NCBI GenBank assembly: GCA_963702055.1
Contig: OY969702.1
Span: 1,912,301-1,976,300, forward strand
Source: an uncultured Solirubrobacterales bacterium
Lineage (GTDB): Bacteria; Actinomycetota; Thermoleophilia; Solirubrobacterales; 70-9
Length of the DNA: 64,000 bases
Direction: 5' to 3'
Shown here: in pieces, positions 1,233 through 29,686 of the stretch
Layout: the number at the start of each line of letters is the position of its first letter
How positions within the stretch are numbered: the stretch's first letter is position 1
Translations under genes and position numbers: made by a program
The notes under the pieces: generated by a model
What the model was told of the DNA's origin: nothing
The model's input: only the letters and a program-made list of their open reading frames with translations
The model's database searches: none

Positions 1233-3176
1233 ATGGAGACCTCGAAACTATCGGTTGATGGACTGCCCCACGTCGACTGGGAGGCCATTTGGGCCTGGGC
1301 ACTCGGGTTTGTTCTCGTCGTCTACCTTGGCCTGAAGGGCGGCGGATTCGATCCGCTCGTGCATGACGAGGTCGGAATCGTCGTCTGGTGGGTCATCCTC
1401 GCGACCGTCCTGGTCGGCACATTGCCCCGCAGCCGCCCCGGCCTTCTGGCCTGGTGCAGCCCCGGCCTTCTGGCCGCCTTCGTCCTCTGGACGGGCCTCA
1501 GTCTCAGCTGGACCGAAAGCGCCGAAAAAACATCGGCCGACCTGGCACGCGTCTCCATGTATCTGGGTGTCTTCGTCCTGGCTCTCTTCGCCCGGGGGCC
1601 GCGGAGGGCCCGGTACATAGTCGCGGGCGTGGGGGCGGGGGTCGCCGTCGTCGCCGTCATCGCCCTCCTCTCTCGCCTCCATCCCGCTTGGTTTCCGGAA
1701 GCGAATCAAGCCGCGACCTTTCTCTCTAGTGCTCGTGAACGGCTCTCCTACCCCCTCGACTACTGGAACGGCCTCGCGGCGCTCATTGCGATCGGTATTC
1801 CGGCAGTTCTCCAGATTGCGGTTTGCGCGGAGTCGATTGTGGCTCGCGCCCTCGCTGCCGCAGCGATGCCCGCGATGGCGCTGACGCTCTTCTTCACGCT
1901 CTCGCGTGGTGGCATGGCCGCCAGCGTGCTCGCACTCGCAATCTTCTTGGGGCTCTCTTCGGACAGGATTCCCAAGCTGGCCACCCTGGCCGTGGCCGGC
2001 GCTGGCAGTGCAGTCCTCATCGCCATCGCCGCCACACATGCCTCACTCCGGCACATCCTCGTCAATCCGCCCGCACTGCACCAGGGAAACGTACTGCTCG
2101 TGATTACGCTCGTCGTCTGCGCAGCGGTCGGCTTGACACAGGCGGGCTTCACCAGCCTCCAGCGCACCCGCATGCGGCCACGCTGGATGATCGTCCCTCG
2201 CAGACGCGCACTGATCGCAGTCATCGCGAGTGTGGCCCTGATTCTTGTCGCGGCGATTGCAATCAATGCCCCAGGGCGAATCTCGCACGCCTGGACCCGC
2301 TTCAAACATCCCGACAACTACTCTGTTCGAGGAGTGGACCGGTTGGGCAGCGCGAGTGGCGAGGACCGATACCAGCACTGGAGTTCTGCCATTAGAGAGA
2401 ACCAGACCAAGCCGCTGACCGGCACGGGTTCGGGCACCTTTCAATTCTGGTGGACGCGTGACGCCGACATTCCCGTTGCCGTGCGCGACACCCACTCCCT
2501 CTACCTGCAGACCCTTGGTGAACTGGGGATCGTCGGGCTGCTTTTCCTTGGAACCTTCCTACTGACGGTACTGATCGGCGGCGTGTTCTCAACCGTCCGA
2601 GCTGAGTTTCAGGAGCGCCCCCAACTCGCCGCGGCCGTCGCAGGGTGCTTCGCGTTCTGTGGCACGGCGACGTTCGACTGGATGTGGCAGATCCCGGTAT
2701 TGCCCGTCGCCTTCCTGCTGCTGGCCTCAGTGTTGATGCCAACGGCTGCCCATCCGAGACGCGAAGGATCGGCGATCTTGCCTCTGTTGCCAAGGCTCGG
2801 CTTCGCAGTCGTTGCGCTCGTCGTCATCGCCGCGATCTCAATTCCTCTCGCGTCAACGTCGCTGGTCCGTGAGAGTCAGATGGAGGCAGCGGCCGGCCAT
2901 CTACCGGCAGCGCTCGAAAAGGCCCGAGACGCACAGGACGCACAGCCGGACGCGGCAACCCCACGCCTACAGCAAGCTCTCATCCTGGAAGACGAGGGTG
3001 CCCTAGCGCTTGCTGCCTCCGCGGCGCTTGCCGCCACGGAGCGAGAATCCACCAACTGGCGAACGTGGATGGTGCTGTCCCGGATCGAAGCTAAGAGGGG
3101 CCATGCTATTTCAGCGCTTCACGCTTATCGTAAGGCCAGATCGTTGAACCCGCGATCCGCGCTATTTCGGGAGTGA
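1233..3176 (+). CDS. O-antigen ligase/Wzy-family polytopic membrane protein with C-terminal TPR-like region
   Basis: Multi-TM protein with the Wzy_C-type motif RDTHSLYLQTLGELGIVGLLFLG. The C-terminal tail is helical-repeat in character. Confidence 0.8.
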   Translation: METSKLSVDGLPHVDWEAIWAWALGFVLVVYLGLKGGGFDPLVHDEVGIVVWWVILATVLVGTLPRSRPGLLAWCSPGLLAAFVLWTGLSLSWTESAEKTSADLARVSMYLGVFVLALFARGPRRARYIVAGVGAGVAVVAVIALLSRLHPAWFPEANQAATFLSSARERLSYPLDYWNGLAALIAIGIPAVLQIAVCAESIVARALAAAAMPAMALTLFFTLSRGGMAASVLALAIFLGLSSDRIPKLATLAVAGAGSAVLIAIAATHASLRHILVNPPALHQGNVLLVITLVVCAAVGLTQAGFTSLQRTRMRPRWMIVPRRRALIAVIASVALILVAAIAINAPGRISHAWTRFKHPDNYSVRGVDRLGSASGEDRYQHWSSAIRENQTKPLTGTGSGTFQFWWTRDADIPVAVRDTHSLYLQTLGELGIVGLLFLGTFLLTVLIGGVFSTVRAEFQERPQLAAAVAGCFAFCGTATFDWMWQIPVLPVAFLLLASVLMPTAAHPRREGSAILPLLPRLGFAVVALVVIAAISIPLASTSLVRESQMEAAAGHLPAALEKARDAQDAQPDAATPRLQQALILEDEGALALAASAALAATERESTNWRTWMVLSRIEAKRGHAISALHAYRKARSLNPRSALFRE

Positions 3177-6284: not shown

Positions 6285-7790
6285 TTACGCGGCCGGCAAC
6301 TTAACTAACGTGCGGCGGCGCCAGGGGGGAAATTCGAGCTTCTCAGGCAGGAAGCCACGGCGCGTTGCGATGAGCCAGTAGGGCAGCCCGTAAATCGTGA
6401 CCGACAGGGCGAGCCAAAACACCGCGGACAGCCGTCCGTCAGGTGTACCGACGAGAATGGTGAGCAGCGCTGGCGGAAGCGCTAGCCCAATCGCGAGCGC
6501 CCCAGTTGGCAGCGTGCCAGCTAATAAGTCTCGCGCCGAGAGCCTGAACCGTCTAAGAAATAATACGTTGAACACCACGCTGCCGAGTGTGACGGCCAGA
6601 ACGGTTCCTGTGGCAACCCCCCACAGCCCAAGTAAAAGGGCAAGCGGGATGGTGAACACGACGTTCAACGCGGCGATCAGCACCTGCTCACCCGACGCTA
6701 GACCGGGAGAGCCTGCGGCTACCGCAATCTGGGTACCGACTCCGGTATTTACGTTTACGAGGTACGCCAATGACAGAAATGGTATTAAGAGCGCGGCGTC
6801 ACCCGGCGCTGTCCCAAGCCATGCGGCTAGGAGAAACGGCGCGCTCACGGAGGTGATCGTGAGGAGCGGAAATGCAAGGGCGCACGTGCGAAGGGTATAG
6901 CGACGGAAGATCTCGCCGATTACCTCATGACCCTCCTCGACAATCCTGGCGGTCGCGGTTGGGATCATTGCAGAAACAGCTAGCAAAGCTGCACTCCGCA
7001 CGGCGATCACAACCCTCGAGGCGATTTCGAAGATAGCCGCCGCCCGCACGTCAATCATGAAAGCAATGATCACCTTGTCTGTCTCCAGGTTAACCAGATA
7101 TGCGACCGCCCCGATTTGGAGCTTTAGACCGAAGGGCAGGACCTCTTTTACTAGGCCGCGCGAGGGAACCGCAAAGTAAGGAGCAGGCCAAAGGTAACGC
7201 ATGGCGAAAAAGGTTGGGCCGATCGCGATCAGCCAGGCAATCGCGTTCGCGACCGCGAATACGGTGAGGTTGGAACTTGTGACGAGCGCCGCCACGCTGA
7301 GGGCGAAACTGAGACCCGCCGCTATCGTCATTGCCACGTTCGCTGGCACCATGCGGCGCTTGCCGTCGCCAACTGCGTTAAGCACTCCAATGAATCCGTT
7401 GGATGTGAAGATCGCGACGGAAGCGAGCAAGACGATCCGCATGTCACCCGTTCCAAGCACCCCGAGCTTTTCGCTCACGAGCGGCGCGATGGCGGCCGCA
7501 GCGGAAGCCGCGAGTAAACCTACCAATGCAATTGCAATTAAGCCCAAACCGACACACTCGCGAATCCGTTGATAGTTGCCGCTCGTGTCGTAAATAGCAA
7601 TGAAGCGGGAGAGAGAGCGGCCGATGCCAAGGTCGAGAAGGCCAGCGTAAGTCGCAAACGCGCCGGTGACTGCCCAGACGCCAAACGCATCGAGTCCCAG
7701 ACGCGCGATCATGAACGGCGCCAGGATGAAGTTAAAGACGTAACCAGCCAGAACACTGGCGGACTGCGCCAAGGTATTGCGAAATAGCAT
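6285..7790 (-). CDS. wzx: Polysaccharide flippase, MOP/Wzx family
   Basis: About 12-14 TM segments. The N-terminus MLFRNTLAQSASVLAGYVFNFILAPFMIARLGLDAFGVWAV is typical of Wzx/PST flippases. Confidence 0.85.
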   Translation of the reverse strand: MLFRNTLAQSASVLAGYVFNFILAPFMIARLGLDAFGVWAVTGAFATYAGLLDLGIGRSLSRFIAIYDTSGNYQRIRECVGLGLIAIALVGLLAASAAAAIAPLVSEKLGVLGTGDMRIVLLASVAIFTSNGFIGVLNAVGDGKRRMVPANVAMTIAAGLSFALSVAALVTSSNLTVFAVANAIAWLIAIGPTFFAMRYLWPAPYFAVPSRGLVKEVLPFGLKLQIGAVAYLVNLETDKVIIAFMIDVRAAAIFEIASRVVIAVRSAALLAVSAMIPTATARIVEEGHEVIGEIFRRYTLRTCALAFPLLTITSVSAPFLLAAWLGTAPGDAALLIPFLSLAYLVNVNTGVGTQIAVAAGSPGLASGEQVLIAALNVVFTIPLALLLGLWGVATGTVLAVTLGSVVFNVLFLRRFRLSARDLLAGTLPTGALAIGLALPPALLTILVGTPDGRLSAVFWLALSVTIYGLPYWLIATRRGFLPEKLEFPPWRRRTLVKLPAA

Positions 7791-17735: not shown

Positions 17736-18083
17736 TCAATGCATCTGAGGAGTCCCCAACATGCGCTCCTGCTCCGAGGCCTCATCGAGATCGGCTAGGT
17801 AGACGAACACCGCGTGAGCCATCAGCAGCTCGACAGGCGCTGCGAATTTGCGGGCCTCGCGCTCCAACGCCCTCCGAACCTCCGGTTCAACGGACAGCTC
17901 GAAGTCGACTCCGGTGGCCTCCAGGGGGTATTCGCGGCGGAAGCGGGGAAACTCAACCGGCCTCCAGCCCAACTTGAGGCGATGCGCGTAATGCCGAAGG
18001 GCCACCTGAACGCCCGCGGCAAGGTCAACTCCGAGGCGGGCCTCGATACCCGAGCGCGCGAATGTGCCGAGTGCGACTCTCAC
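17736..18083 (-). CDS. Small protein with two ribbon-helix-helix-like units (paralogue family 1 of 3)
   Basis: VDFELSVEPEVRRALEREARKFAAPVELLMAHAVFVYLADLD has a beta-strand plus two-helix pattern like CopG/Arc. It is similar to 20816..21193 and 18963..19187. Confidence 0.45.
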   Translation of the reverse strand: MRVALGTFARSGIEARLGVDLAAGVQVALRHYAHRLKLGWRPVEFPRFRREYPLEATGVDFELSVEPEVRRALEREARKFAAPVELLMAHAVFVYLADLDEASEQERMLGTPQMH

Positions 18084-18955: not shown

Positions 18956-19187
18956 GCTCGATTCAACCCTCAGTTTCGAGACTGTCGAGGATGAGCTGGG
19001 TGGCGCGACCGGCATCCCGATCCGCGGCGAAATAGAGCGCCGTGTGCTCGATCAGCTGCTGCGTGGAGACGCCTTGACGGTCGGCCTCCAGCTCAAACGA
19101 GCGCCAGACCTCGTCGTCGACGCTCAGTTCCAACTCCACCTCCTCCCCACCGGTCTCTTCTCCATTGCGCAGGAAGCCGGGGTACGG
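18925..19187. repeat. Direct repeat copy 1 (~263 bp), partner at 20776..21040
   Basis: Hand alignment: the two copies are near-identical along their length. The repeat contains the last ~10 codons plus stop of the sigma gene and the C-terminal RHH unit on the opposite strand. Confidence 0.85.
18963..19187 (-). pseudogene. Truncated RHH-family paralogue (second unit only), inside repeat copy 1
   Basis: ..PYPGFLRNGEETGGEEVELELSVDDEVWRSFELEADRQGVSTQQLIEHTALYFAADRDAGRATQLILDSLETEG. The upstream part of ORF 18963..19310 overlaps the dehydrogenase 3' end and is Arg-rich noise. Confidence 0.4.
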
Positions 19188-19263
19188 CTTCTTCCATGGG
19201 AAGCGGCGATGCTGCCCGGTGTGGAATCGGCGGGCTTGACTATCTTGAGGTCCGCTGAGCCGC

Positions 19264-20511
19264 CTAGAGGCGAACGAGATTCTCGGCCGCGATCTCGCGG
19301 GTGACGCCACGGAAGTCGATCACCCGTGCGGCCTCCGACACGACCCGCTCGTAATCGAGCTGGGGGTGCGCGGTGACGATCGCCGCCAGGTCGGCTTCTG
19401 CCAGGGCCTCGGGCAGATCGACCGAGGCGAGGCCCAGGTCGGCCAACTCGGCGACGTGGGGGTCATGATAGGAAACCTCGCCGCCGCGGTCTACCAGCAG
19501 CTGGATGATCTTCAGCGCCGGGGACTCGCGGATGTCCCCGACCCCCGCCTTGTAGCTGACCCCGAGGACCAGGACCTTGGAGCCCTTGACCGGCTTGCCG
19601 GCGTCGTTGAGCGCTCGCTCGATCCGCTCGACGCAGTAGGAGGGCTGGGACTGGTTGATCTTCCCCGCCAGCTCGATGAACTCGGGGTAGAAGTTGTGCT
19701 CGCGCGCCTTGAAGGCCAGGTAGAAGGGGTCGACGGGAAGGCAGTGCCCGCCCATTCCGGGCCCCGGCTCGAAGCGCATGAAGCCGAAGGGCTTGGTCGA
19801 GGCGGCGTCGATCGCCTCCCAGACGTCGATCCCCAGCCGGTCGCAGAGCTGGGCCAGCTCGTTGACGAAGGCGATGTTGACCGAGCGGAAGATGTTCTCC
19901 AGCAGCTTCGCCAGCTCCGCCGTCTCGGGGTTGGAGAGGACGACCACCTCCTCACAGACCTCCGCGTAGAGGGCGCGGGCGCGCTCGGCGCAGGCCTCGG
20001 TGAGGCCGCCAACCAGCTTCGGCGTGGTGGCGACCGTGTAATCGGTGCGCCCCGGGTCGATCCGCTCGGGCGAGAAGGCGAGGTGGAAGTCGCGGCCCGC
20101 GGCCATCCCCGATTCCTCGAGGATCGGCAGCAGCCGCTCGCGGGTGGTGCCCGGGTAGGTGGTCGACTCGAGGACGACGAGCTGCTCGGGCTGCAGCACA
20201 GCCGAGAGCGAGCCGGCAGCGTCGAGCAGGTGGGTGAGGTCGGGCTCGCGGGTCCCGGTCAGCGGGGTGGGGACGCAGACGATCACCGCGTTGCAGGAGG
20301 CGAGGTCGGCGTGGCGGGGGGTCGGGCGGAGTCGGGCGGACAGCGGCACGAGAGCCTCGTCGGGGATGTCCTCGATGTAGCTGCGCCCCTCGCCGAGGGC
20401 GTCGAGCTTGCGCTGATCGGCGTCGAGCCCGACCACCTCGTGCCCGGCCTGCGCAAAGGCGACCGCGAGCGGTAGCCCGACGTAGCCGAGGCCGATGATG
20501 CCGATCTTCAT
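19264..20511 (-). CDS. Nucleotide-sugar 6-dehydrogenase (UDP-glucose/GDP-mannose dehydrogenase family)
   Basis: MKIGIIGLGYVGLPLAVAFAQAGHEVVGLD (Rossmann)...GPGMGGHCLPVDP (catalytic Cys)...VLGVSYKAGVGDIRESP. Confidence 0.9.
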   Translation of the reverse strand: MKIGIIGLGYVGLPLAVAFAQAGHEVVGLDADQRKLDALGEGRSYIEDIPDEALVPLSARLRPTPRHADLASCNAVIVCVPTPLTGTREPDLTHLLDAAGSLSAVLQPEQLVVLESTTYPGTTRERLLPILEESGMAAGRDFHLAFSPERIDPGRTDYTVATTPKLVGGLTEACAERARALYAEVCEEVVVLSNPETAELAKLLENIFRSVNIAFVNELAQLCDRLGIDVWEAIDAASTKPFGFMRFEPGPGMGGHCLPVDPFYLAFKAREHNFYPEFIELAGKINQSQPSYCVERIERALNDAGKPVKGSKVLVLGVSYKAGVGDIRESPALKIIQLLVDRGGEVSYHDPHVAELADLGLASVDLPEALAEADLAAIVTAHPQLDYERVVSEAARVIDFRGVTREIAAENLVRL

Positions 20512-20775: not shown

Positions 20776-21040
20776 GGCCCCAGCGGCCTCGTGCCGTCGC
20801 CGATCTAGGCTCGACTCAACCCTCAGTTTCGAGACTGTCGAGGATGAGCTGGGTGGCGCGACCGGCATCCCGATCCGCGGCGAGATAGAGCGCCGCGTGC
20901 TCGGCCAGCTGCTGCGTGGAGACGCCTTGACGGTCGGCCTCCCGCTCAAACGAGCGCCAGACCTCGTCGTCGATGCTCAGCTTCAACTCCACCTCCTCCC
21001 CACCGGTCCCTTCTCCATTGCGCAGGAAGCCGGGGTACGG
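20776..21040. repeat. Direct repeat copy 2 (~265 bp), partner at 18925..19187
   Basis: Includes an orphan copy of the sigma-gene 3' end (..GLVPSPI-stop) with no sigma gene upstream. Confidence 0.85.
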
Positions 21041-21193
21041 CCAATCGGGCCGACCAGAGCCGCTTACGGGGTCACTGAGGTAAAAGCGGATGGCGCGAGC
21101 AACTCGAGTAGCCAAATGCTCTTCGGCGCCCTCTTCGCCTGCCAAGGCGGCGGCAGTGAACTTGCCGAATCTGAGGGTTACGTTCTGGGCCAT
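20816..21193 (-). CDS. Double RHH-like small protein (full-length paralogue)
   Basis: ATG 21193 follows GGGAGAAG. MAQNVTLRFGKFTAAALAGEEGAEEHLATRVARAIRFYLSD is unit 1 and EVELKLSIDDEVWRSFEREADRQGVSTQQLAEHAALYLAAD is unit 2. Confidence 0.5.
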   Translation of the reverse strand: MAQNVTLRFGKFTAAALAGEEGAEEHLATRVARAIRFYLSDPVSGSGRPDWPYPGFLRNGEGTGGEEVELKLSIDDEVWRSFEREADRQGVSTQQLAEHAALYLAADRDAGRATQLILDSLETEG

Positions 21194-21386
21194 AGGGGCT
21201 TCTCCCGCGGGAAGCACCCCAGCCGCTATGCCCACAGGTTTCCTCTCTTCCAATCCTGCGCCCCCCATGCCCGACATCGCAAGACCCTATACAAACTTCA
21301 TATCTGCATTACTAAAAATTCGCTGTTTAGCCAGCCGACTTTCTGATAAAGCCGAATGTGGGGACTCACCGGGGGCCGACAAGCCC

Positions 21387-22451
21387 TCAACCGCCGCAAA
21401 CCTCACATCCCGGCTCCGGCACAACCGGCTCGCGCTGGACCTCCATCGTCCGCAGGTCGCAGATGTGGGCGACGCCCAGGGTGGAGGGCGTGCTGAGGCC
21501 AGTCAGGTGGTGCAGGATCTCCATCCCCACCTGTCCGCCGATCAACCCGCAGGCGGGTCCCAGCGTGGCCGCGGGCGAGGGCTGGGCGCGGCGCTGGGCG
21601 ACCGTCGCGTCGAACAGGGGGTAGTCGCGGCGGTAGGCGGTCTCCTGGCAGGCGAAGCAGCCGGTCTGTCCCGGCACGTACAGCGGCCCGATCCTGGCCA
21701 CCGGTGGGAAGTGGCTCATCGTGATGTAGGGGATGGCGGCGGCGAAGCAGGCCGAGTTGACCCAGCGCTCGACGTCGTGGGCGGGCCAATCGGCGGCGTC
21801 CACCACCACTGTTGAGCCTTCGATGGCCGCGGCGATCTCGGCTTCGCTCTCCAGGCGCTTCGGCAACACCTCGAGTCGCATCGCCGAGTTGAAAGCCCGG
21901 AGGCGCTCGGCGGCGGCGGCCGCCTTGGGCTCGCCGAGGTCGGCCTCGGTGTAGAGGATCTGGCGGTTGAGGTTGCTGGCCTCGACCCGATCGCCGTCGA
22001 TCAAGACCATCTCGCCGATCCCGCAGCAGGCGAGCGCCCAGGCGGCCCATGCCCCCAGCCCCCCCACTCCGAACATCACGACCCGGGCGGCGCGCAGCCG
22101 TTCCTGGCACTCGGAGGGCGTCGGCCCGTCGGTGGCGACGTCGCTGAAGTAGCGCAGCTGGCGGTCGAAGCGAGCCAGCTCGCCCTCCTCCAGGCGGTCG
22201 TCGTCCGCCGCGTCCTCGACCAATCCCAGCTCGCCGAGGCCGGCCAGGGCCTCGCGCACGGCCCCGGGGCTGAACCGGCCGTCCAACTCGGCGCGGGGAC
22301 GGGTCCCGTCGAGGGATGCCAGCAGCAACCGCTGCTCGCGGTCGGGCCGCTCGATGCGAACGTCCGCGTCGGCGCTGGGGCGCAGCAGGAGGAGATCGCC
22401 GTCGGGCGACTCGATCAACTCGGTCGTGCGCTTCAGTCGCGGTCTGAGCAT
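21387..22451 (-). CDS. ThiF/MoeB-fold E1-like adenylyltransferase with a ~115-aa N-terminal extension, possibly peptide-binding (MccB/PaaA-type architecture)
   Basis: VVMFGVGGLGAWAAWALACCGIGEMVLIDGDRVEASNLNRQILY (nucleotide loop plus Arg/Asp), two CxxC pairs (GCFACQ, GCEVCGG), and an N-terminal extension LIESPDGDLLLLRP...LLASLDGTRPRAEL...LGELGLVED. Confidence 0.85.
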   Translation of the reverse strand: MLRPRLKRTTELIESPDGDLLLLRPSADADVRIERPDREQRLLLASLDGTRPRAELDGRFSPGAVREALAGLGELGLVEDAADDDRLEEGELARFDRQLRYFSDVATDGPTPSECQERLRAARVVMFGVGGLGAWAAWALACCGIGEMVLIDGDRVEASNLNRQILYTEADLGEPKAAAAAERLRAFNSAMRLEVLPKRLESEAEIAAAIEGSTVVVDAADWPAHDVERWVNSACFAAAIPYITMSHFPPVARIGPLYVPGQTGCFACQETAYRRDYPLFDATVAQRRAQPSPAATLGPACGLIGGQVGMEILHHLTGLSTPSTLGVAHICDLRTMEVQREPVVPEPGCEVCGG

Positions 22452-22481
22452 GGGCGGGGGTGACGACGCAAGACAGGGGCC

Positions 22482-22519
22482 GAGTCACCCCGGCCCGCTC
22501 AATCCGGGCCGGGGGACTC
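22482..22519 (-). terminator. Strong GC hairpin between peptide gene A1 and the E1 gene (attenuator/partial terminator or RNA-stabilising element)
   Basis: Transcript sense GAGUCCCCCGGCCCG-GAUUGAG-CGGGCCGGGGUGACUC: 15 bp stem with one bulged A. It is followed by UGUCUU, which is only a weak U-tract. Confidence 0.45.
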
Positions 22520-22530
22520 GGCGCTGCGGC

Positions 22531-22593
22531 TCAGGAAGCCTTAGTGACGGAGACCGCCGGGATGGCGCGCTCCTGCGTCTTGCTGATCTTCAC
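22531..22593 (-). CDS. Short peptide gene A1 (20 aa): MKISKTQERAIPAVSVTKAS; candidate precursor/substrate peptide
   Basis: GTG start lies 7 nt after GGGGGTGA (SD-like). The gene ends 80 nt upstream of the E1 gene. Paralogue at 24196..24255 with synonymous differences. Confidence 0.55.
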   Translation of the reverse strand: MKISKTQERAIPAVSVTKAS

Positions 22594-22723
22594 GCTGCTT
22601 CACCCCCTCCCATTCGTTCGCGATTGACTACTGCTAAAGACCCACCGATTACTCAAATTCGTTTCACTATTTAGATCGACGACCGTCTGAACGGCAATTA
22701 GGATCGACTGGCCAGGAACTTCT

Positions 22724-23347
22724 GTGCAAAACGCAACCGAAGGAGCCGGCGTGGCGCCTGCCGCTACACAAACGATCGATCAGAGGGTGGCGAAGGTGCT
22801 GACGCACCCTGTCCGCGTGCAGATCATGGCCATCCTCGACCAGCGTGTTGCCAGTCCAAACGAGATGGCCAATCAGCTTGGCGTCGGGCTGAGTCACGTC
22901 TCCTACCACGTCAAAGTCCTCAAGGAGTACGAGTGCATCGAGCTGGTCAAGACGCGGCAGCGGCGAGGTGCCGTCGAGCACTTCTACCGGGCGATCATGC
23001 GCCCCTACTTCAGCGACAGCGACTGGGGGCAGCTGCCGCGTTCGGCTCGACAGGGGATCTCCTCCGCCGTCGTGCAGATGATCGTCGAAGACGCGGTTGA
23101 GTCCCTGGACGCCGGATCATTCGACTCGCGCCCGGACCGCCACCTGAGCCGCTTGCCGCTGGTGATGGACGAGGAGGGGTGGGAGGAGTTGAACCAGCTT
23201 TTGAACGACCTGCTGGAGCAGGCCCTCGACCTTCAGGCCCGCTCCGCCTCCCGCATGGCCGAGGAGAAGACCGAAGGCATCACGTCGAAGCTGGCGCTCT
23301 TTCACTTCGAGTCGCCGGAGCCAAAAAAGAAAGCCCCCGCCAAATAG
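22724..23347 (+). CDS. ArsR/SmtB-family winged-helix transcriptional regulator with C-terminal extension
   Basis: KVLTHPVRVQIMAILDQRVASPNEMANQLGVGLSHVSYHVKVLKEYECIELVKTRQRRGAVEHFYRA. Confidence 0.8.
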   Translation: MQNATEGAGVAPAATQTIDQRVAKVLTHPVRVQIMAILDQRVASPNEMANQLGVGLSHVSYHVKVLKEYECIELVKTRQRRGAVEHFYRAIMRPYFSDSDWGQLPRSARQGISSAVVQMIVEDAVESLDAGSFDSRPDRHLSRLPLVMDEEGWEELNQLLNDLLEQALDLQARSASRMAEEKTEGITSKLALFHFESPEPKKKAPAK

Positions 23348-23383
23348 TTGAAATTATCTGAGCAATAGGGGAGGCTAGGGGGC

Positions 23384-24199
23384 GTGAGCGTCCTACCCGC
23401 CCCGACGACTGCCGCCGCTGAGAGCTACGACGAGCTGGCTCCGTTCTACGACGCGTTCACGTCCCACCACGACTACGAGGCCTGGACTCTCCACCTCGAG
23501 GCGGCGGCTCTGGACGCGGGGCTGGCCGGGCGGCGGATGCTCGACATCGCCTGCGGAACGGGTAAGAGCTTCCTGCCGTTCCTGGAACGCGGCTACGAGG
23601 TGACCGGCTGCGACGTCTCGGCGGAGATGCTCGCCGAGGCCGCCCGCAAGGCCCCCGAGGTGAGGTTGGAGCGCTGCGACATGCGCGACCTTCCGGTACT
23701 GGGCCGCTTCGACCTGGTGACCTGCCTCGACGATTCGCTCAATTACCTGCTGAGCGCCGAGGAGGTGGAGGCGGCGCTACGCGGCCTCGCCGCGAACCTG
23801 GCGCCGGGCGGCGTCTGCGTGTTCGACCTCAACACCCTCTCCGCCTATCGCACGACGTTTGCCGGCGACGCGGCGGTCGAGGACGGCGGCGCCTACCTCT
23901 TCTGGCACGGGGAGACCAGCGATGACGTGGCGGCGGGGTCGACGGCGCAGGCGACGATCGAGATCTTCGAGCCAACGCCCGATCGCCTCTACCGCCGGCG
24001 CAGGAGTCGTCACGTTCAGCGCCACTACCCGCCCGAGGCAGTGCTCGACTTGCTCGAGGCCGCCGGCCTCCGCTGCCTGGCCGTATATCGCCAGCTGATC
24101 GACGGCTCGCTCGAGCGCAGCGGCGCGGAGGAGTCGACCCACAAGTCGGTCTACGTCGTCGGGTTACGCGATGCAGAGGGGGGAGGTGAGACCAGGTGA
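23384..24199 (+). CDS. Class I SAM-dependent methyltransferase (small-molecule MTase fold)
   Basis: YDELAPFYDAF..MLDIACGTGKSFLPFLERGYEVTGCDVSAEMLAEA..RFDLVTCLDDSLNYL..LAPGGVCVFDL. Confidence 0.85.
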   Translation: MSVLPAPTTAAAESYDELAPFYDAFTSHHDYEAWTLHLEAAALDAGLAGRRMLDIACGTGKSFLPFLERGYEVTGCDVSAEMLAEAARKAPEVRLERCDMRDLPVLGRFDLVTCLDDSLNYLLSAEEVEAALRGLAANLAPGGVCVFDLNTLSAYRTTFAGDAAVEDGGAYLFWHGETSDDVAAGSTAQATIEIFEPTPDRLYRRRRSRHVQRHYPPEAVLDLLEAAGLRCLAVYRQLIDGSLERSGAEESTHKSVYVVGLRDAEGGGETR

Positions 24200-24255
24200 A
24201 GATCAGCAAGACGGAGCACGTCGTGCCGGCAGCTTCGATCACCAAGGCGGGCTAA
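24196..24255 (+). CDS. Short peptide gene A2 (19 aa): MKISKTEHVVPAASITKAG; paralogue of A1
   Basis: GTG overlaps the methyltransferase TGA (GTGA). GGAGGTGA lies 7 nt upstream, inside the MTase 3' end. The first 7 codons are nucleotide-identical to A1. Confidence 0.55.
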   Translation: MKISKTEHVVPAASITKAG

Positions 24256-24307
24256 CCGCAATAAGAGGGCGAACTCAAACTTAGCTGCTTTGCCAATCGC
24301 CGACGTA

Positions 24308-24329
24308 CGTTCCGCAATATGCGGGAACG
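24308..24329. terminator. Imperfect hairpin between convergent peptide A2 and the Fic gene
   Basis: CGTTCCGCA-ATA-TGCGGGAACG, with one bulge. Confidence 0.3.
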
Positions 24330-24332
24330 GTG

Positions 24333-25361
24333 TTAATTTTCCTTCGCCAATTCTGACTTGTGCCAGGCGGTATTCGGACCGCTGCCCCCCTTGCACCAAA
24401 TGGCCTGCTGATCGCGCAGCTCATGCAGCGCGTTGCGGATCGTTTTGTCGCTCATCCCGGGCAAGTTTGCGCGGATCTCGTCGAAGCGAAATTGCTCTGG
24501 AGCGGATTCCAACACCCAGCGCCGTACCCACTCTTGCTTGTTCACTCCTTTCGGTGGCTGTGCAAGCGCCAGGCGATCCTCGAATTCCTCGTGGGCGCTG
24601 AACAGGGCTGTGGTGAGAAACGTCGCCCAGGCCCAAATGCTGTGTTCTCCCCTCCCCCAGCCCTCCCGCGACTTGCGCAGGGCCTTCTTGTAGGCGTCGC
24701 GTCGCTCGCAGATCACCCGCCCGAGGCTCACGTACCGAAGGGCGCCGTAGTCATGGCGGTCCAGCTCCCGGTCGAGCAGGAGCAGCGCGACGCGCTCGTT
24801 GCCGCCAGCAAACGGCTCTATTGCGTGCAGGTCGAGGCTGAGGGCGGCGAGCAGCAGAATCGGGTGCGCGGCCTCACCCTCGTCGGCTTGCCCGTAGGAG
24901 CGCAAGAGGGATCTGAGCAACCGTTTGGCTCGCGGCGAAGGAGCTCGACTGGGATCGCCACCCCTTCGCCGGGCACCGGCTGATATTTCGTGCCCGTACA
25001 AGCGGTCGTGGAGCTCGATCGCGAGCTCTGGGGTCGGCGGACCGGGATCCTCATCGAGGATCAGGGCGTCGAAGGCGTCTCGGTACCCGGCAACTTCCCG
25101 CTCGCCCTGATTACGCAGCTGGGACTTCTCCATCCCGATCAGCCGCTCCGTGCGCTGCTTCGTCACCCTGAAGCCGGCGATCGCGTTCGAAGCCCAGATC
25201 GATTCGAGCCGCCTGCGGGCGGCGAGGTCTCCCAGTAGCCTCGCCGCTTGCGCGGGCCTGGCTTCGCTACGTCCTTTCGCCGCGTCGGCCTTGCAGAGCA
25301 GCACGCCGAGTCGCGGCGGCATCGCGCCGAAGGTCCTCTCGAGATCGTCAAAGCTGCTCAT
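24333..25361 (-). CDS. Fic-domain protein with degenerate active-site motif and C-terminal winged helix
   Basis: The Fic core position reads LHAIEPFAGGNERVALLLL, against the canonical HPFx(D/E)GNGRxxR. C-terminal DKTIRNALHELRDQQAIWCKG. Confidence 0.8.
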   Translation of the reverse strand: MSSFDDLERTFGAMPPRLGVLLCKADAAKGRSEARPAQAARLLGDLAARRRLESIWASNAIAGFRVTKQRTERLIGMEKSQLRNQGEREVAGYRDAFDALILDEDPGPPTPELAIELHDRLYGHEISAGARRRGGDPSRAPSPRAKRLLRSLLRSYGQADEGEAAHPILLLAALSLDLHAIEPFAGGNERVALLLLDRELDRHDYGALRYVSLGRVICERRDAYKKALRKSREGWGRGEHSIWAWATFLTTALFSAHEEFEDRLALAQPPKGVNKQEWVRRWVLESAPEQFRFDEIRANLPGMSDKTIRNALHELRDQQAIWCKGGSGPNTAWHKSELAKEN

Positions 25362-26202: not shown

Positions 26203-26266
26203 CGGGCGTGCGTGGGGCTCGGGAATCGGCCCCGCAGTGGGCGGGGCCCTCCGTGAAAGGACGGCA

Positions 26267-29200
26267 ATGCCAGCCACCACCCGACCTTCCGAGCGTTCCC
26301 AGGCCAAGCGCGGAGCGCTCACCGGTGCCGCCCTCAGCGATGAGGTCTTCGACTCCTCCACCTCCCTGCTGCGCCCGACACGGGGGACCAATGCCGTCAC
26401 CGGCCTCCAGCAGTTCTTCGCTCCGGGTGAGGCCGCCGAGCTGATCGCCGCGGTCAACGGCCGCTCACTCAGCACCCTCGACCTGACCGCAGGTGACGGC
26501 GCCTTGCTCGCCGGGGTCGACCGAGAGGTCCGCTTCGGAATCGAGATCGACGCCGACCAGGCAACCGACGCCCCCTACACCGCGATCCAAGGCGACGTGC
26601 AGCGCGCCTACCCGCTGCTGCGGCTGCTGGGAACCGAATTCCCCCGCCTTGCCTGCAATCCCCCTTTCGGGCTCGACTGGGCGCCGAACGGTCACCGCGA
26701 GAACTCCACGCTCGCCACCTGGCGGATGGCGAGCGCGCTGCTTGCCGACTCCGGCGCCGGCGTGTTCATCGCCGGGCGCGATCGCTTCGCCCGCGAGATG
26801 ATGCCGCGACCCGACGCCGCCGGCGTCTATGCGCTGATCGAGTGTGCCGACCTCTTCGACGGGGTGGAGTTGCCCTGCCTGATCGCCTTCTTCGTGGCGG
26901 CCGACAACGTCGCCTCGCCACGCGAAGGAGGGCCGCTGCGCCTTGAGGCAGCTCGCGAGGAGCTGGCGGGGCTCGCGGAGGAGATCACTTCTGAGCGACG
27001 CCGGGTCGGCGCTCAGGTGATCGACTTGCCGCGCTGCCCTTACCGCGCCTCGCTGATCGAGCGCTTCGAGACGGTCGGCAAGGAGCTGGCCCGACGGCGT
27101 GAGTCCGCGGCCTCTACCCGCCAGCGCCATGACCTGGCGCTTCGCGGCAACCGCATCTCGGCGAGGCCGAGTCCCTTCGCCCGCCTCGCGCTCGGCCAGC
27201 GTCGCGTGCTTCGCAACGTCGAGCGCCTCCACGGCCAGCCGACCACCTACTTCGCGCTGAACCTGCGCGAGTGGCGCCAGCTCTACTCCCTCGCCGCCGA
27301 GGACGTCTTGACCTTGGAGCCGGCGCTGCGCGAAGCGGTCGCCGCAGCGACCGTGGCGGCCGAGCAGGCGGTCTGTCCGCTCTATGAGGTCCGCCCCCAG
27401 CAACGACTCGCCTTCCTCGATGACCTCGACTCGATCCGTTGCATCGCGCCCGATCCCGAGCGCGGCTTTGAGGCGGGGGAGAGCTACCCGCTCGCGACCT
27501 CTAGCGACGTTCAGCTCACCCACGCCGAGCGGCCCCACCAGAAGCGAAACGGCGACGTTGAGATTCGCCGCTACGAACACGAAGCCAAGGTGCTGCGGGT
27601 CGAGATCGACGGGCACGTATTCAACGAGTCCGCAGCCGACGTCGCCTATCTGCTGGGTCACTTCGAGCTGCCCGATCCCGGCGACCTGGCGACTCGCTTC
27701 CCTGAGCAGGTTGAGTCGGCGCGCGGCGTGCTGCGCCGCCTCGCCGATCGCCACGGGTTCGAGTTCAAGCGCTCCGATGCCGAGGACTGGCAGCTCGAGG
27801 ATCTGGCTCGCCTCCTCGTCAAGGGCTCGGGGGTGTTGGGCTGGGAGCAGGGGGGAGGCAAGAGCCTCGGCGGGGCGACCCTGATCCACGCCCAGTGGGA
27901 GCGCGGCGCCGCCCGCAAGGGCCTGATCGTCTGTCCCCAAGACCTGGTGCCGCAGTGGAAGCGCGAGATCAAGCGCTTCTATGACGAAGAGCCAGAGCAC
28001 ATCACCACCCCCGCCCAGGCAAGGGCGGTGGCCCGCCACCTGCGCCACGGCGGCCAGGGCCTCTACATCACCCACTACGAGGTGCTCTCGCTACTGGGCC
28101 GCGTCGATGAACCGTTGCCGGTCACGGCGATCCGCTCCCCCTCGATCGAGGGGGAGGACGCCGAGCGCCTCGCCCTTGACTCCGAGGAGTTCTGCCCCTC
28201 CTGCCTCGCCGATCACCACGCGGGCTGGCAGAAGCAGAGCCCCTACGTCTGCGAGCGCTGCGCCTACGTCCACAAGCGCCTGCGCGTAAAGACCGCCGCC
28301 CACTACCTGGCCGGCGCCTTCCACGACGGGGTGATCGTCGTCGATGAGGGAACCCTCGCCAAGGGCAACGACAGCCTGCGCTCCAAGGCGATCCGCGGCC
28401 TTCGAGCCCGCCACCGCTACCTGCTCACCGGCACCCCGATCTCCAACTACGTAAACGACGTCTTCTGGTTGCTGTGGTGGACGCTCGGCAACGCATCGCT
28501 GCGCTTCCCCTTCGACTACGAGGGCGGGCGGGCGAAGTTCGAGGCCGACTTTTGCGTGATCGAGTACTTCCGAAAAGGCGGCCGCCGCGAGGGCCGCAAG
28601 GTGCTCCCCCAGGTCACCAACGTCTCGCGCCTTTGGCGCTTGCTCTCCGGCGCGATGGTGCGCCGCCGCAAGCAGCACATGGGGGAGCTGCCGCCGCGCA
28701 CCATGCGAACGATCGCCGCTCCGATGGGAGAGGCCCAGCTCGACCTCTACAAGTTCTGGCTCTCCGCTCAGAACTTCGAGCGCTACTTCGCCTGGCGCCA
28801 CCCCGAGCACCCGCTGCTCGAAGCGGGCCTGGTCGAGCGCTTCGCCGCCGGCCTCGGCCAGCTGACCAAGCTGGAGTACGCGACGACCCTGCCCGAGGCA
28901 GACCCCGACCGCGAGTGGGAGGGGCTGGCCGAGCTGGCGCAATCCAACTGGACGCCGAAGAACCTCAAGGTTCTCCAGGTCGCCCTTGAGCACGTGAACC
29001 GCGGCGAGAAGGTGCTGATCGGATCGGACCTGATCGAGACCGGGCGCTGGCTATGCCAGCGGCTTTGCGAGAAGGGCGTCGACGCCACCCACATCGTCGA
29101 AGAGCGAGCGGGCCGGGCGGCGACGATGAATCCCCGTCGCCGCGCCAAGGCGATCGAGCGGTTCAAGACCGGCCCGACGCAGGTGCTCTGCTGCGGGATC

Positions 29201-29686
29201 CCCTCGATCCGCCTCGGCCACTCCCTGGAAGCGGCCTCCTGCGTGATCGCCAACGGGCTTGTTTTCTCCTATGAGATGTTCGATCAGTTCATCGCCCGCG
29301 CCTGGCGGCTCACCTCGCCGGGTCCGGTCTCCGTCTATGTGGCGCTGACGCTCGGTTCTCTTGACCCGAAGAAGTGGGAGCTGCTCTGTCAGAAGGCGAA
29401 GGCCGCCGATCTCGCCCTCGACGGGCAGCTGGTCGATGAGCCCGAGCAGCCGATCTCACGCGAGGAGTTCCTGCGCGAGCTGCGCCGCCAAGGGGTGAAG
29501 CCGAGCGGTGAGGAGATCGCCGAGGCCGACATCGAGGCGGCATGGGAAGCCACGGCGATGCTGGCGAGTAGCGCAGCTACGCAGCGGGCAACCTGCGGAG
29601 AAGGCGAGGGCTCTCAGCAGACAGTCGACTGGCACCGGGTCTCGGTGCAGGGCGCCGAGCAGCTCGATCTCTTCGCTGCGGCCTGA
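26267..29686 (+). CDS. Fusion protein: N6-adenine DNA methyltransferase-like domain plus SNF2-family helicase with an inserted zinc ribbon
   Basis: LDLTAGDGALLAG (motif I) and LACNPPFGLDW (motif IV NPPF). Helicase motifs GWEQGGGKSLGG, VVDEGTLAKG, LLTGTPISNYVNDVFWLLWW, plus a C-terminal helicase domain. Zinc ribbon CPSC..(17)..CERC. Confidence 0.85.
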   Translation: MPATTRPSERSQAKRGALTGAALSDEVFDSSTSLLRPTRGTNAVTGLQQFFAPGEAAELIAAVNGRSLSTLDLTAGDGALLAGVDREVRFGIEIDADQATDAPYTAIQGDVQRAYPLLRLLGTEFPRLACNPPFGLDWAPNGHRENSTLATWRMASALLADSGAGVFIAGRDRFAREMMPRPDAAGVYALIECADLFDGVELPCLIAFFVAADNVASPREGGPLRLEAAREELAGLAEEITSERRRVGAQVIDLPRCPYRASLIERFETVGKELARRRESAASTRQRHDLALRGNRISARPSPFARLALGQRRVLRNVERLHGQPTTYFALNLREWRQLYSLAAEDVLTLEPALREAVAAATVAAEQAVCPLYEVRPQQRLAFLDDLDSIRCIAPDPERGFEAGESYPLATSSDVQLTHAERPHQKRNGDVEIRRYEHEAKVLRVEIDGHVFNESAADVAYLLGHFELPDPGDLATRFPEQVESARGVLRRLADRHGFEFKRSDAEDWQLEDLARLLVKGSGVLGWEQGGGKSLGGATLIHAQWERGAARKGLIVCPQDLVPQWKREIKRFYDEEPEHITTPAQARAVARHLRHGGQGLYITHYEVLSLLGRVDEPLPVTAIRSPSIEGEDAERLALDSEEFCPSCLADHHAGWQKQSPYVCERCAYVHKRLRVKTAAHYLAGAFHDGVIVVDEGTLAKGNDSLRSKAIRGLRARHRYLLTGTPISNYVNDVFWLLWWTLGNASLRFPFDYEGGRAKFEADFCVIEYFRKGGRREGRKVLPQVTNVSRLWRLLSGAMVRRRKQHMGELPPRTMRTIAAPMGEAQLDLYKFWLSAQNFERYFAWRHPEHPLLEAGLVERFAAGLGQLTKLEYATTLPEADPDREWEGLAELAQSNWTPKNLKVLQVALEHVNRGEKVLIGSDLIETGRWLCQRLCEKGVDATHIVEERAGRAATMNPRRRAKAIERFKTGPTQVLCCGIPSIRLGHSLEAASCVIANGLVFSYEMFDQFIARAWRLTSPGPVSVYVALTLGSLDPKKWELLCQKAKAADLALDGQLVDEPEQPISREEFLRELRRQGVKPSGEEIAEADIEAAWEATAMLASSAATQRATCGEGEGSQQTVDWHRVSVQGAEQLDLFAAA

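Follow-up and report, generated by a model that had tools for sequence, protein, structure and literature searches.

Two unannotated open reading frames (ORFs) of only 19 and 20 codons, here called A1 and A2, lie close to the gene for a ThiF-like, E1-type adenylyltransferase (E1 below) in a 64,000-nucleotide stretch of DNA from an uncultured Solirubrobacterales bacterium (the window, meaning the whole of that stretch), and the locus raises the question of whether they are genes and, if so, whether the enzyme acts on their products. An initial annotation, made from the sequence alone, had proposed that these ORFs encode the precursors of a peptide-modification system resembling those of RiPPs (peptides made by the ribosome and modified after translation). 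Our analysis supports this proposal, and we give a RiPP-like system built around the ThiF-like adenylyltransferase a rough probability of 0.65; two outcomes named beforehand as refuting it, E1 homologues without a conserved short ORF beside them and an E1 that groups with MoeB and ThiF, were examined and neither was found. The features on which this reading rests are as follows.

22593..22531, minus strand: A1, precursor-like peptide gene, 20 aa (MKISKTQERAIPAVSVTKAS), GTG start, peptide-profile E-value 3.4e-5
22600-22611, minus strand: A1 ribosome-binding site GGGAGGGGGTGA, 6 nt ahead of the GTG
24196..24255, plus strand: A2, precursor-like peptide gene, 19 aa (MKISKTEHVVPAASITKAG), GTG start, peptide-profile E-value 2.9e-9
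24180-24189, plus strand: A2 ribosome-binding site GGGGAGGTGA, 6 nt ahead of the GTG
21387..22451, minus strand: E1, ThiF-like adenylyltransferase, 354 aa, Pfam ThiF 1.3e-49 over residues 96-350
E1 domains: RiPP recognition element (RRE), or peptide clamp, at residues ~1-80, then a helical linker, then the adenylation domain at residues 96-350

Both ORFs are present as described, each opened by GTG, and A1 and A2 are real paralogous small genes. A codon comparison with a one-codon gap gave pN (nonsynonymous) 0.18 and pS (synonymous) 0.375, and the four codon pairs said to differ only synonymously (GCG/GCA, TCC/TCG, ACT/ACC and GCT/GCG) do so; of the seven leading codons said to be identical, only six are (18 nt), CAG being an additional seventh codon in A1. 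The A1 stop lies 79 nt from the E1 start, the A2 start overlaps the stop of a methyltransferase gene in a GTGA that bears out the proposed coupling, and the divergent spacer between the A1 start and the ArsR ORF start (22724) on the opposite strand measures the 130 nt originally given. That A1 and A2 stand beyond chance follows from their scores against a peptide profile, which was built from related peptides and scanned over 22,560 ORF tails, and from the recurrence of such genes with an equal ribosome-binding site, length and position in 44 of 80 species loci.

The enzyme itself points in the same direction. The nucleotide loop, NLNRQ and the two CxxC pairs initially reported are present, and GVGGLG (GxGxxG), DGD..E.SNLNRQ, K176, DAAD and both zinc CxxC pairs are invariant in 23 E1 homologues. 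A PDB search with a profile of these 23 homologues ranked MccB first (3e-44), followed by PaaA (1.7e-38, residues 3-341) and ThiF (4e-35), with MoeB also below MccB and PaaA. In the AlphaFold2 (AF2) model of E1 (pLDDT 87.8, pTM 0.86), residues 4-80 form four short strands followed by three helices, the arrangement of an RRE, and a Foldseek search with this model aligned it to PaaA (6e-25) and MccB (3e-24) over its full length (348-360 columns, TM ~0.75-0.8; PaaA 0.76/0.82), whereas ThiF and MoeB aligned over ~270 columns, the core only. As the full-length match to PaaA and MccB includes the RRE and that to ThiF and MoeB does not extend beyond the core, the MccB/PaaA-like N-terminal extension claimed for E1 stands, and by profile as by fold E1 sits with MccB and PaaA rather than with MoeB and ThiF. 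Computation thus gives E1 a predicted PaaA/MccB architecture, an RRE or peptide clamp joined to a catalytically intact E1 core.

E1 could instead be a catalytically silent docking protein of the thiazole/oxazole-modified microcin (TOMM) type, akin to SagC. The domain model TIGR03882 does score above its cut-off (45.5 bits vs 36.9, residues 250-353), which is why NCBI and JGI records carry the automatic name 'TOMM precursor leader peptide-binding protein'; however, neither the window nor the inspected loci hold a YcaO or dehydrogenase partner, the SagC family model reaches 20 bits where 188 would be needed, the intact nucleotide-binding motifs do not vary, and the peptides have no Cys and few Ser or Thr, so that we consider a docking role extremely unlikely.

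A conserved family of precursor-like peptides

More than 2,000 E1 homologues were collected, the best 120 at 70-80% identity, and those that carried an organism name were all from Solirubrobacterales; with one genome scanned for each species, E1 was present in 335 species, from which the best 80 loci were kept for neighbourhood counts. When the peptide profile was run against every ORF tail, a peptide gene was identified in 44 of the 80 species loci in addition to the two window copies, and over a set of 83 E1 loci there were 49 copies in 46, plus the 2 in the window. The conserved short ORF looked for beside E1 homologues therefore exists, and in at least nine loci its stop and the E1 start are 0-15 nt apart; computation shows that these peptide genes are real and conserved, that they share the orientation of E1 and that translational coupling to it is frequent.

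The copies are strikingly uniform. Every one is 18-20 codons long, starts are ATG or GTG (TTG once), a G-rich GGGGGTGA-type ribosome-binding site stands a few nucleotides ahead of the start in nearly all, and the gene lies either 0-130 nt or ~1.6 kb upstream of E1. Among the 43 copies of 19 aa, Pro is found at position -9 in all 43 and Lys at -3 in 42, while the final residue is small throughout (29 G, 6 N, 5 A, 2 T and 1 S). At the N-terminus stands MK(I/V), V or I precedes Pro(-9), and position -4 is usually His (Thr in the window copies); the consensus is MKIxKxE...VPxxS(I/V)xKx-G/N/S/A. Peptide sequence, fixed length and the P(-9)...K(-3)...C-terminus spacing are kept down to an E1 identity of ~50%.

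No Pfam or NCBIfam family matches these peptides. The last residue is Ser in A1 and Gly in A2, and neither peptide has the Asn end, Cys or Glu-Glu-Asn core that they had been said to lack; across A1, A2 and the 49 homologous peptides there is no Glu-Glu-Asn core, and the peptides contain no Cys, few Ser or Thr, and no Trp, hence no WWxxx or NWYFI C-terminal motif (motifs per PMC11256085). The locus adds a precursor family in which the motifs that mark the five characterised chemistries (Asn, Glu-Glu-Asn, Cys and Trp) are missing, and as it carries no known reactive motif its product should be new.

Two variants of the gene were seen. Locus L042 has two tandem ArsR-peptide pairs (peptide ends at L042:2319 and L042:3372), and in L090:957-1028 and L097:2998-3069 a copy beside an ArsR homologue has a 1-nt frameshift, so that MKIAETR... 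and ...HPMVSIVKVG* fall in different frames; the copy is identical in both metagenome contigs, and either a pseudogene or a sequencing error may be behind it.

The C-termini bear on two further explanations. The first is chemistry of the microcin C kind, by which E1 would turn a C-terminal Asn via a succinimide into an N-P-bonded peptidyl-nucleotide. MccB is the best PDB sequence match, and Asn is last in 6 of the 43 Solirubrobacterales peptides (HKGN, YKTN) and in three peptides of a sister clade (AITKAN, AITKAN, AITKSN). Against this, the window peptides end in Gly or Ser, 37 of the 43 homologues have no Asn end, and genes of the MccC, MccD, MccE and MccF types are not present in the window or related loci; moreover, the switching between G and N among closely related peptides argues that the last side chain is not a conserved nucleophile. 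We give this explanation very little credence for the system as a whole, and MccB-type chemistry is an option only where the last residue is Asn, as it is in a minority of the peptides.

The second treats the peptide as a miniature carrier or tag: its C-terminal Gly would be adenylated in the manner of ThiF, MoeB or a ubiquitin E1, and the peptide would then become a thiocarboxylate sulfur carrier or be conjugated to lysines of other proteins. Gly as the last residue in 29 of the 43 peptides, the absence of export genes and the housekeeping-like, order-wide occurrence of E1 in fixed synteny would all suit such a role. However, the NCBIfam equivalogs score E1 far under their cut-offs (MoeB 121 vs 266, ThiF 120 vs 275, UbaA 93 vs 450), matches to defence E1-E2 models are limited to the ATP-binding core, the peptide has neither a beta-grasp fold nor a GG end, and the overall fold of E1 is that of the RiPP enzymes. 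Nor did we find YcaO, E2, JAB, rhodanese or beta-grasp genes near E1 in the window or the inspected loci, a desulfurase neighbour, or a Cys in the E1 crossover loop. A carrier or tag of this type is very unlikely in our view. An assignment to anti-phage E1-E2 systems (CBASS Cap2, Bil) was likewise rejected, as the PADLOC matches span residues 115-230 only and there is no E2 or JAB.

Locus layouts, the ArsR-like regulator and the hairpins

Across the order E1 stands in a block that reads uracil-DNA glycosylase (UDG), E1, a lipoprotein-like 128-aa gene and TMEM175, and this block occurs in three layouts. Type I has UDG and then E1 without regulator or peptide (32 of the 80 loci, contig ends cutting 4 others). 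Type II has UDG, a divergent ArsR and then peptide and E1 (18 cases including the window); A1 has this canonical placement, and E1, A1 and the divergent ArsR, the left half of the window system, form an ordinary Type II unit. In Type III (27 loci, a single clade) the order is divergent ArsR, peptide, UDG, a second ArsR paralogue and E1. The peptide stop falls 0-15 nt before the E1 start in the Type II loci L035, L030, L012, L016, L026, L069, L064, L025 and L081. The elements around A1, E1 and A2 that concern expression are these.

22724..23347, plus strand: ArsR-like winged-helix regulator with a C-terminal extension of ~115 aa, Pfam HTH_20 28.2 bits and HTH_5 22.1 bits
22594..22723: putative divergent promoter/operator region of A1 and ArsR, holding a degenerate palindrome copy TAGTGAAACGAATTTGAGTA at 22650-22669
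22479..22522, minus strand: GC-rich 18-bp hairpin between A1 and E1, RNA fold -51.3 kcal/mol, z -4.4, 0 of 200 shuffles as good
24308..24329, plus strand: possible terminator hairpin after A2, common to the convergent Fic gene, weak and read from sequence

The Pfam scores of the regulator (HTH_20, HTH_5) are barely above cut-off and the NCBIfam ArsR/SmtB model falls below its own; the source record starts the protein at 22751, 9 codons later. The link of ArsR to the peptide system is confirmed, since an ArsR homologue is divergent from the peptide (or, in L001, from a methyltransferase-peptide pair) in 44 of 44 peptide-bearing loci, and the peptide is always divergent from it save for A2 and the L001 copy, both of which follow a methyltransferase. 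The converse expectation, that ArsR implies the peptide, was dropped, as ArsR-centred contexts showed the regulator family to be broader than the system. In Type III loci (L013, L015 and others) ArsR2 is divergent from E1, and the ArsR2-E1 spacer holds a conserved sequence that translates as ETH*SNQ / LKLIKAI.

Roughly 100 nt 5' of the peptide start there is a palindrome, TAGTGGAAC-TTTC-TCCACTA, whose 9-mers recur in 18-19 of 50 upstream regions and which, on this recurrence, is a likely operator; no sigma-70 consensus was found in the A1-ArsR divergent region. A hairpin (z < -2) follows the peptide stop in 36 of 50 copies, namely those with a long spacer behind them, and its structure is kept between loci while its sequence varies; the tightly coupled copies and A2 lack it. 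The A1-E1 hairpin is likely a leaky terminator or an RNA-stabilising element that sets the peptide-to-enzyme ratio. Behind A2, the fold of 24250-24350 is no better than that of shuffles (z -0.1). The peptide ribosome-binding sites are near-perfect, unlike the E1 start, which is preceded by a C-rich stretch (GTCGTCACCCCCGCCC-ATG, 22452-22470, minus strand) with no visible ribosome-binding site, and several homologous loci are alike in this.

These observations admit an explanation in which E1 has no part: the small ORF would belong to the ArsR-like regulator, as an independent ArsR-controlled small protein or as a cis-acting leader peptide with an attenuator hairpin, with E1 a mere frequent neighbour that has some other substrate. 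The peptide is constantly beside an ArsR homologue and not constantly beside E1, the 32 Type I loci have no peptide gene, a hairpin stands behind the ORF in most copies, and what lies downstream of the peptide differs between loci (E1, UDG, a DsbA-like gene, or no gene). On the other side, the tightly coupled copies, at least nine of them, have no hairpin, so that the attenuator reading can be only a minor one; amino acids, length and P(-9)/K(-3) spacing of the peptide are conserved as far as E1 identity of ~50%; E1 keeps a conserved peptide-binding domain, which requires a ligand; a sister clade has the peptide gene between its methyltransferase and E1 coding regions; and ArsR homologues of 55-57% identity were found with neither peptide nor E1. 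We judge it unlikely that the ORF belongs to the regulator rather than to E1.

Several findings nevertheless weigh against a peptide-modification system. In the 32 Type I loci there is neither a peptide nor an ArsR gene within 5 kb and E1 is fully conserved, RRE conservation being 0.70 in loci without a nearby peptide vs 0.70 in loci with one, and E1, in its conserved block, resembles a core gene more than it does part of a mobile biosynthetic cluster. ArsR-peptide pairs without an adjoining E1 occur in L093, L090/L097 (the frameshifted copy) and L005, where the peptide is oriented away from E1; these fit supply in trans. Neither the window nor the related loci have a linked exporter, leader peptidase or immunity gene, as the initial annotation had already remarked for the adjacent exporter and immunity genes. 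The L016 peptide has Arg in place of Lys at -3. Finally, the pooled peptide pN/pS of 0.67 indicates only mild constraint, although mild sequence constraint is common for short precursors.

Two genes that flank E1 elsewhere deserve mention. The 128-aa protein, with a lipoprotein-like signal (..LISGCGG..) and no Pfam match, begins ~15 nt past the E1 stop in most Solirubrobacterales loci (L081:11119-11505, L083:11120-11506 and ~45 others) and may be co-transcribed with E1; it is missing from the window. UDG flanks E1 in most loci, also in Planotetraspora, and a functional link between the two was rejected, as the Planotetraspora UDG is of a different family and the window and the sister clade have no UDG.

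The methyltransferase, the sister clade and the wider neighbourhood

23384..24199, plus strand: class I S-adenosylmethionine (SAM) methyltransferase, Pfam Methyltransf_25 6.6e-20, AF2 pLDDT 91

The window methyltransferase had been counted as part of the system; it proved to be a real partner, as the sister-clade gene order and a fusion described below argue, and at the same time an accessory one, adjoining E1 or peptide in only 3 of the 83 E1 loci (the window, L001 and L005). The window stretch from methyltransferase to A2 aligns en bloc with the methyltransferase-peptide stretch of L001, the closest relative; methyltransferase and A2 form a module added downstream of ArsR. The best NCBIfam model for the enzyme is that of the daptide RiPP methyltransferases (NF041820), at 67.7 bits below its cut-off of 175, and Foldseek placed two uncharacterised methyltransferases and the C-methyltransferase PsmD ahead of TylM1, CalS10, CcbJ and CypM. 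Its modelled fold is thus of a group rich in amine N-methyltransferases (TylM1, CypM) and would suit an accessory tailoring enzyme; as the top matches are uncharacterised, PsmD ranks above TylM1, identities are 20-27% and the daptide model is below cut-off, the type of methylation is merely suggested.

A search of 1.8 billion representative proteins returned ~100 further clusters with the full-length RRE-ThiF layout, and several of these proteins are 620-690 aa long with an N-terminal class I methyltransferase. In these single-ORF proteins of a sister clade the N-terminal half is 52% identical to the window methyltransferase and the E1 half 54% identical to the window E1. All sister-clade loci have a divergent HTH_20/ArsR-type gene, and Pro(-9) and Lys(-3) are held in all sister-clade peptides. 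The order methyltransferase, peptide, E1 is found in L106, L107, L109 and L111. In L109 these are three separate genes, the middle one encoding MLQIKKLEAPIVPAVAITKSN; L108 is a direct methyltransferase-E1 fusion with a linker of ~20 aa and an upstream peptide gene (MGIQKTSRRLAPAASTRKGV) that has a ribosome-binding site and a hairpin. In L106, L107 and L111 a stop-less methyltransferase frame continues into an E1 without its own canonical start codon (no ATG, GTG or TTG near its N-terminus), and inside the 'linker' there is a complete out-of-frame peptide gene, again with ribosome-binding site and hairpin (peptides MLKIEKLERPIVPAVAITKAN and MRVEKLDKPVVPSLSIQKGA). The linker consensus of 12 single-frame proteins keeps KEV..A.DREAR, which in another frame is the ribosome-binding site and peptide start. 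The three single frames run as follows.

L107:2257-4209: methyltransferase-E1 single frame, peptide at ~3053-3118
L106:6001-7959: methyltransferase-E1 single frame, peptide ends at 6874
L111:1567-3630: methyltransferase-E1 single frame, peptide ends at 2449

Further afield, the cultured actinomycete Planotetraspora silvatica (GCA_016863315.1) has a 33%-identical E1 (L110:5001-6104) that shares the N-terminus MLLPRVKR.., and a 41-aa ORF after it (L110:6209-6334, ...ATTKILIRKLDTTETTVCSNSTGN*) has the K-I-x-x-K-L-D/E motif in common with the peptides and an Asn end.

The immediate neighbours of the window system are a UDP-sugar dehydrogenase, an uncharacterised small protein and a Fic protein, with an SNF2 helicase further downstream. 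Three small proteins (17736-18083, 18963-19310 and 20816-21277, all minus strand), none with a Pfam or NCBIfam match, lie around the dehydrogenase gene (19264-20511); the second and third flank it and have near-identical C-terminal halves (...GGEEVEL.LS.DDEVWRSFE.EADRQGVSTQQL.EH.ALY.AADRDAGRATQLILDSLETEG), and the first looks like a more distant relative of this pair. The Fic-domain protein (24333-25361, minus strand) is convergent with A2 and matches SoFic weakly (1.3e-10); L017 and L061 likewise have Fic homologues (28% identity) in the vicinity of E1. After the Fic gene comes a 1149-aa SNF2-type helicase (26237-29686, plus strand) with weak matches to DpdE and ZorD, and the two may form a defence-type island adjoining the system.

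Proposed chemistry and comparison with known systems

The pathway that we propose would begin at the divergent promoter, controlled by the ArsR-like repressor. From its near-perfect ribosome-binding site the 19-20-aa peptide would be strongly translated, in excess over E1, and the hairpin behind its stop would pass only part of the transcripts into the E1 gene. An E1 dimer would hold the N-terminal MKIxKxE part of the peptide on its RRE, thread the C-terminal tail (P -9, K -3 and the small last residue) under the crossover loop and use ATP to adenylate the C-terminal carboxylate. The resolution of the acyl-adenylate is the most speculative step. Our best guess, by analogy with IndF and EnfB, is attack by Lys(-3), which would give a 13-membered macrolactam (-18 Da), and we favour it because most loci have peptide and E1 only and the minimal IndF, EnfB and GrcB systems cyclise within the peptide (PMC12596934). 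Alternatively, the acyl-adenylate might be coupled to an external amine; amidation by EnfB (PMC11256085) and the FzmZ precedent (PMC13622209) make such coupling, with N-methylation after it, a serious alternative. In the methyltransferase-bearing lineages, the window included, an amine would then be N-methylated (+14 Da per methyl).

We consider the system most likely to be an ArsR-controlled member of the ThiF-like RiPP systems with uncharacterised chemistry. A fuller reading, possible but in our opinion doubtful when all of its parts are taken together, is that of a non-exported, vertically inherited, intracellular peptide-derived cofactor, signal or tag of Solirubrobacterales, made by ThiF-like chemistry new to the enzyme family (a lactam between Lys(-3) and the C-terminus, or amine coupling and N-methylation), controlled and perhaps sensed by ArsR, with the sister-clade precursor overprinted out of frame in the methyltransferase-E1 linker, so that the gene of the modifying enzyme would contain that of its precursor. 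The fixed chromosomal synteny, together with the lack of export genes, hints that the role is physiological and not one in warfare.

Such a system would be of interest for several reasons. It is conserved in hundreds of species (E1 in 335 species genomes) of an abundant, barely cultured order of soil Actinomycetota; it shows how central to a system a 19-codon gene that gene callers overlook can be; and its enzyme and peptide make a compact pair for the activation of a peptide C-terminus, a reaction already used for bioconjugation with MccB (PMC13255007). ThiF-like peptide-modifying enzymes are a small family with five characterised chemistries, each found with a new type of precursor. The reviews and mining papers name MccB, PaaA, GrcB, EnfB and IndF, with precursor motifs unlike those of the present peptides; one survey mentions many 'bacteriocin' clusters in Thermoleophilia without detail, and our literature search found no paper that joins ThiF, RiPP and Solirubrobacter.

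The statement in the initial annotation that the system does not fit known families was too strong, as ThiF-like RiPP enzymes have been recognised as a kind since 2024-25, and several of their chemistries do without Asn and Glu-Glu-Asn (PMC12596934, PMC12250964, PMC11256085). In MccB, PaaA, GrcB, EnfB and IndF alike a peptide carboxylate is adenylated and a differing nucleophile then attacks (PMC12596934, PMC11256085). The best structural match to E1 is PaaA of pantocin A (Pantoea agglomerans; PDB 5ff5), which has the same RRE and ThiF architecture and is also paired with a short ribosomal precursor, at a sequence identity of just 27%. However, the pantocin precursor PaaP has 30 aa and its modification falls on an internal Glu-Glu-Asn, which the window peptides lack, and neither the PaaB oxygenase nor the PaaC exporter is present here.

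MccB of microcin C7 (E. coli; PDB 3h5a, 6om4) is the best sequence-profile match and has the clamp, adenylation domain and zinc CxxC pairs in common with E1. As in the window, the precursor is very short and uncleaved; in addition, the mcc operon has a hairpin between its precursor and enzyme genes. MccA, however, has 7 aa and an obligatory Asn end, compared with 19-20 aa and a G or S end here, and microcin C is plasmid-borne with mccC-F, whereas the present system is chromosomal, vertically conserved and without mccC-F. MccB adenylates the C-terminal carboxylate of its precursor, and its peptide clamp is formed across the dimer (PMC12250964).

Enterofaecin (EnfB) and the IndA-cyclic system (IndF) of Lactobacillales are minimal in the same way, with one short precursor and one RRE-ThiF enzyme. 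EnfA is a 21-aa precursor and its cluster has no peptidase (PMC12596934, PMC11256085). In both systems a nucleophile 2-3 residues upstream attacks the C-terminal carboxylate once this has been adenylated (PMC11256085, PMC12150305, PMC12596934), and EnfB in addition accepts free amines, with which it amidates the C-terminus (PMC11256085). By their descriptions they are set apart from the present peptides by precursors ending WWIVI or NWYFI, in which a backbone amide or the Trp indole is the nucleophile, as against peptides without Trp; moreover, their clusters contain ABC transporters and quorum-sensing regulators, in contrast to an ArsR-like regulator and no transporter here.

The methyltransferase calls for two other comparisons. 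Its model aligns with the CypM/TylM1 group (TylM1, CalS10, CcbJ and CypM) at E-values of 1e-16 to 1e-19, with identities of 20-27%. In the fosfazinomycin system (FzmZ/FzmA/FzmH) a 22-aa peptide, overlooked for its length, is activated with ATP at its C-terminus, coupled to an amine and N-methylated (PMC13622209). Activation there by an RRE-bearing enzyme parallels the combination of peptide, E1 and amine-type methyltransferase, but that enzyme is asparagine-synthetase-like rather than ThiF-like, and the kinases, nucleotidyltransferase and phosphonate genes are missing here.

Taken feature by feature, the window and related loci lack the Asn-ended precursor with linked MccC/D/E/F of a microcin C system, apart from the minority of Asn ends noted above. 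A sulfur-carrier activator is not indicated, with the equivalogs under their cut-offs, an extra N-terminal domain and no beta-grasp gene nearby; nor, despite TIGR03882, is a TOMM docking protein, with no YcaO in the inspected loci and no Cys in the peptides. The system also lacks the defining features of pantocin A, enterofaecin/IndA, the daptide methyltransferase and the anti-phage E1-E2 systems. The three features that mark ThiF-like RiPP systems are, by contrast, all present: an intact ThiF domain, an N-terminal RRE fused to it, and an adjoining precursor gene (44 of 80 loci).

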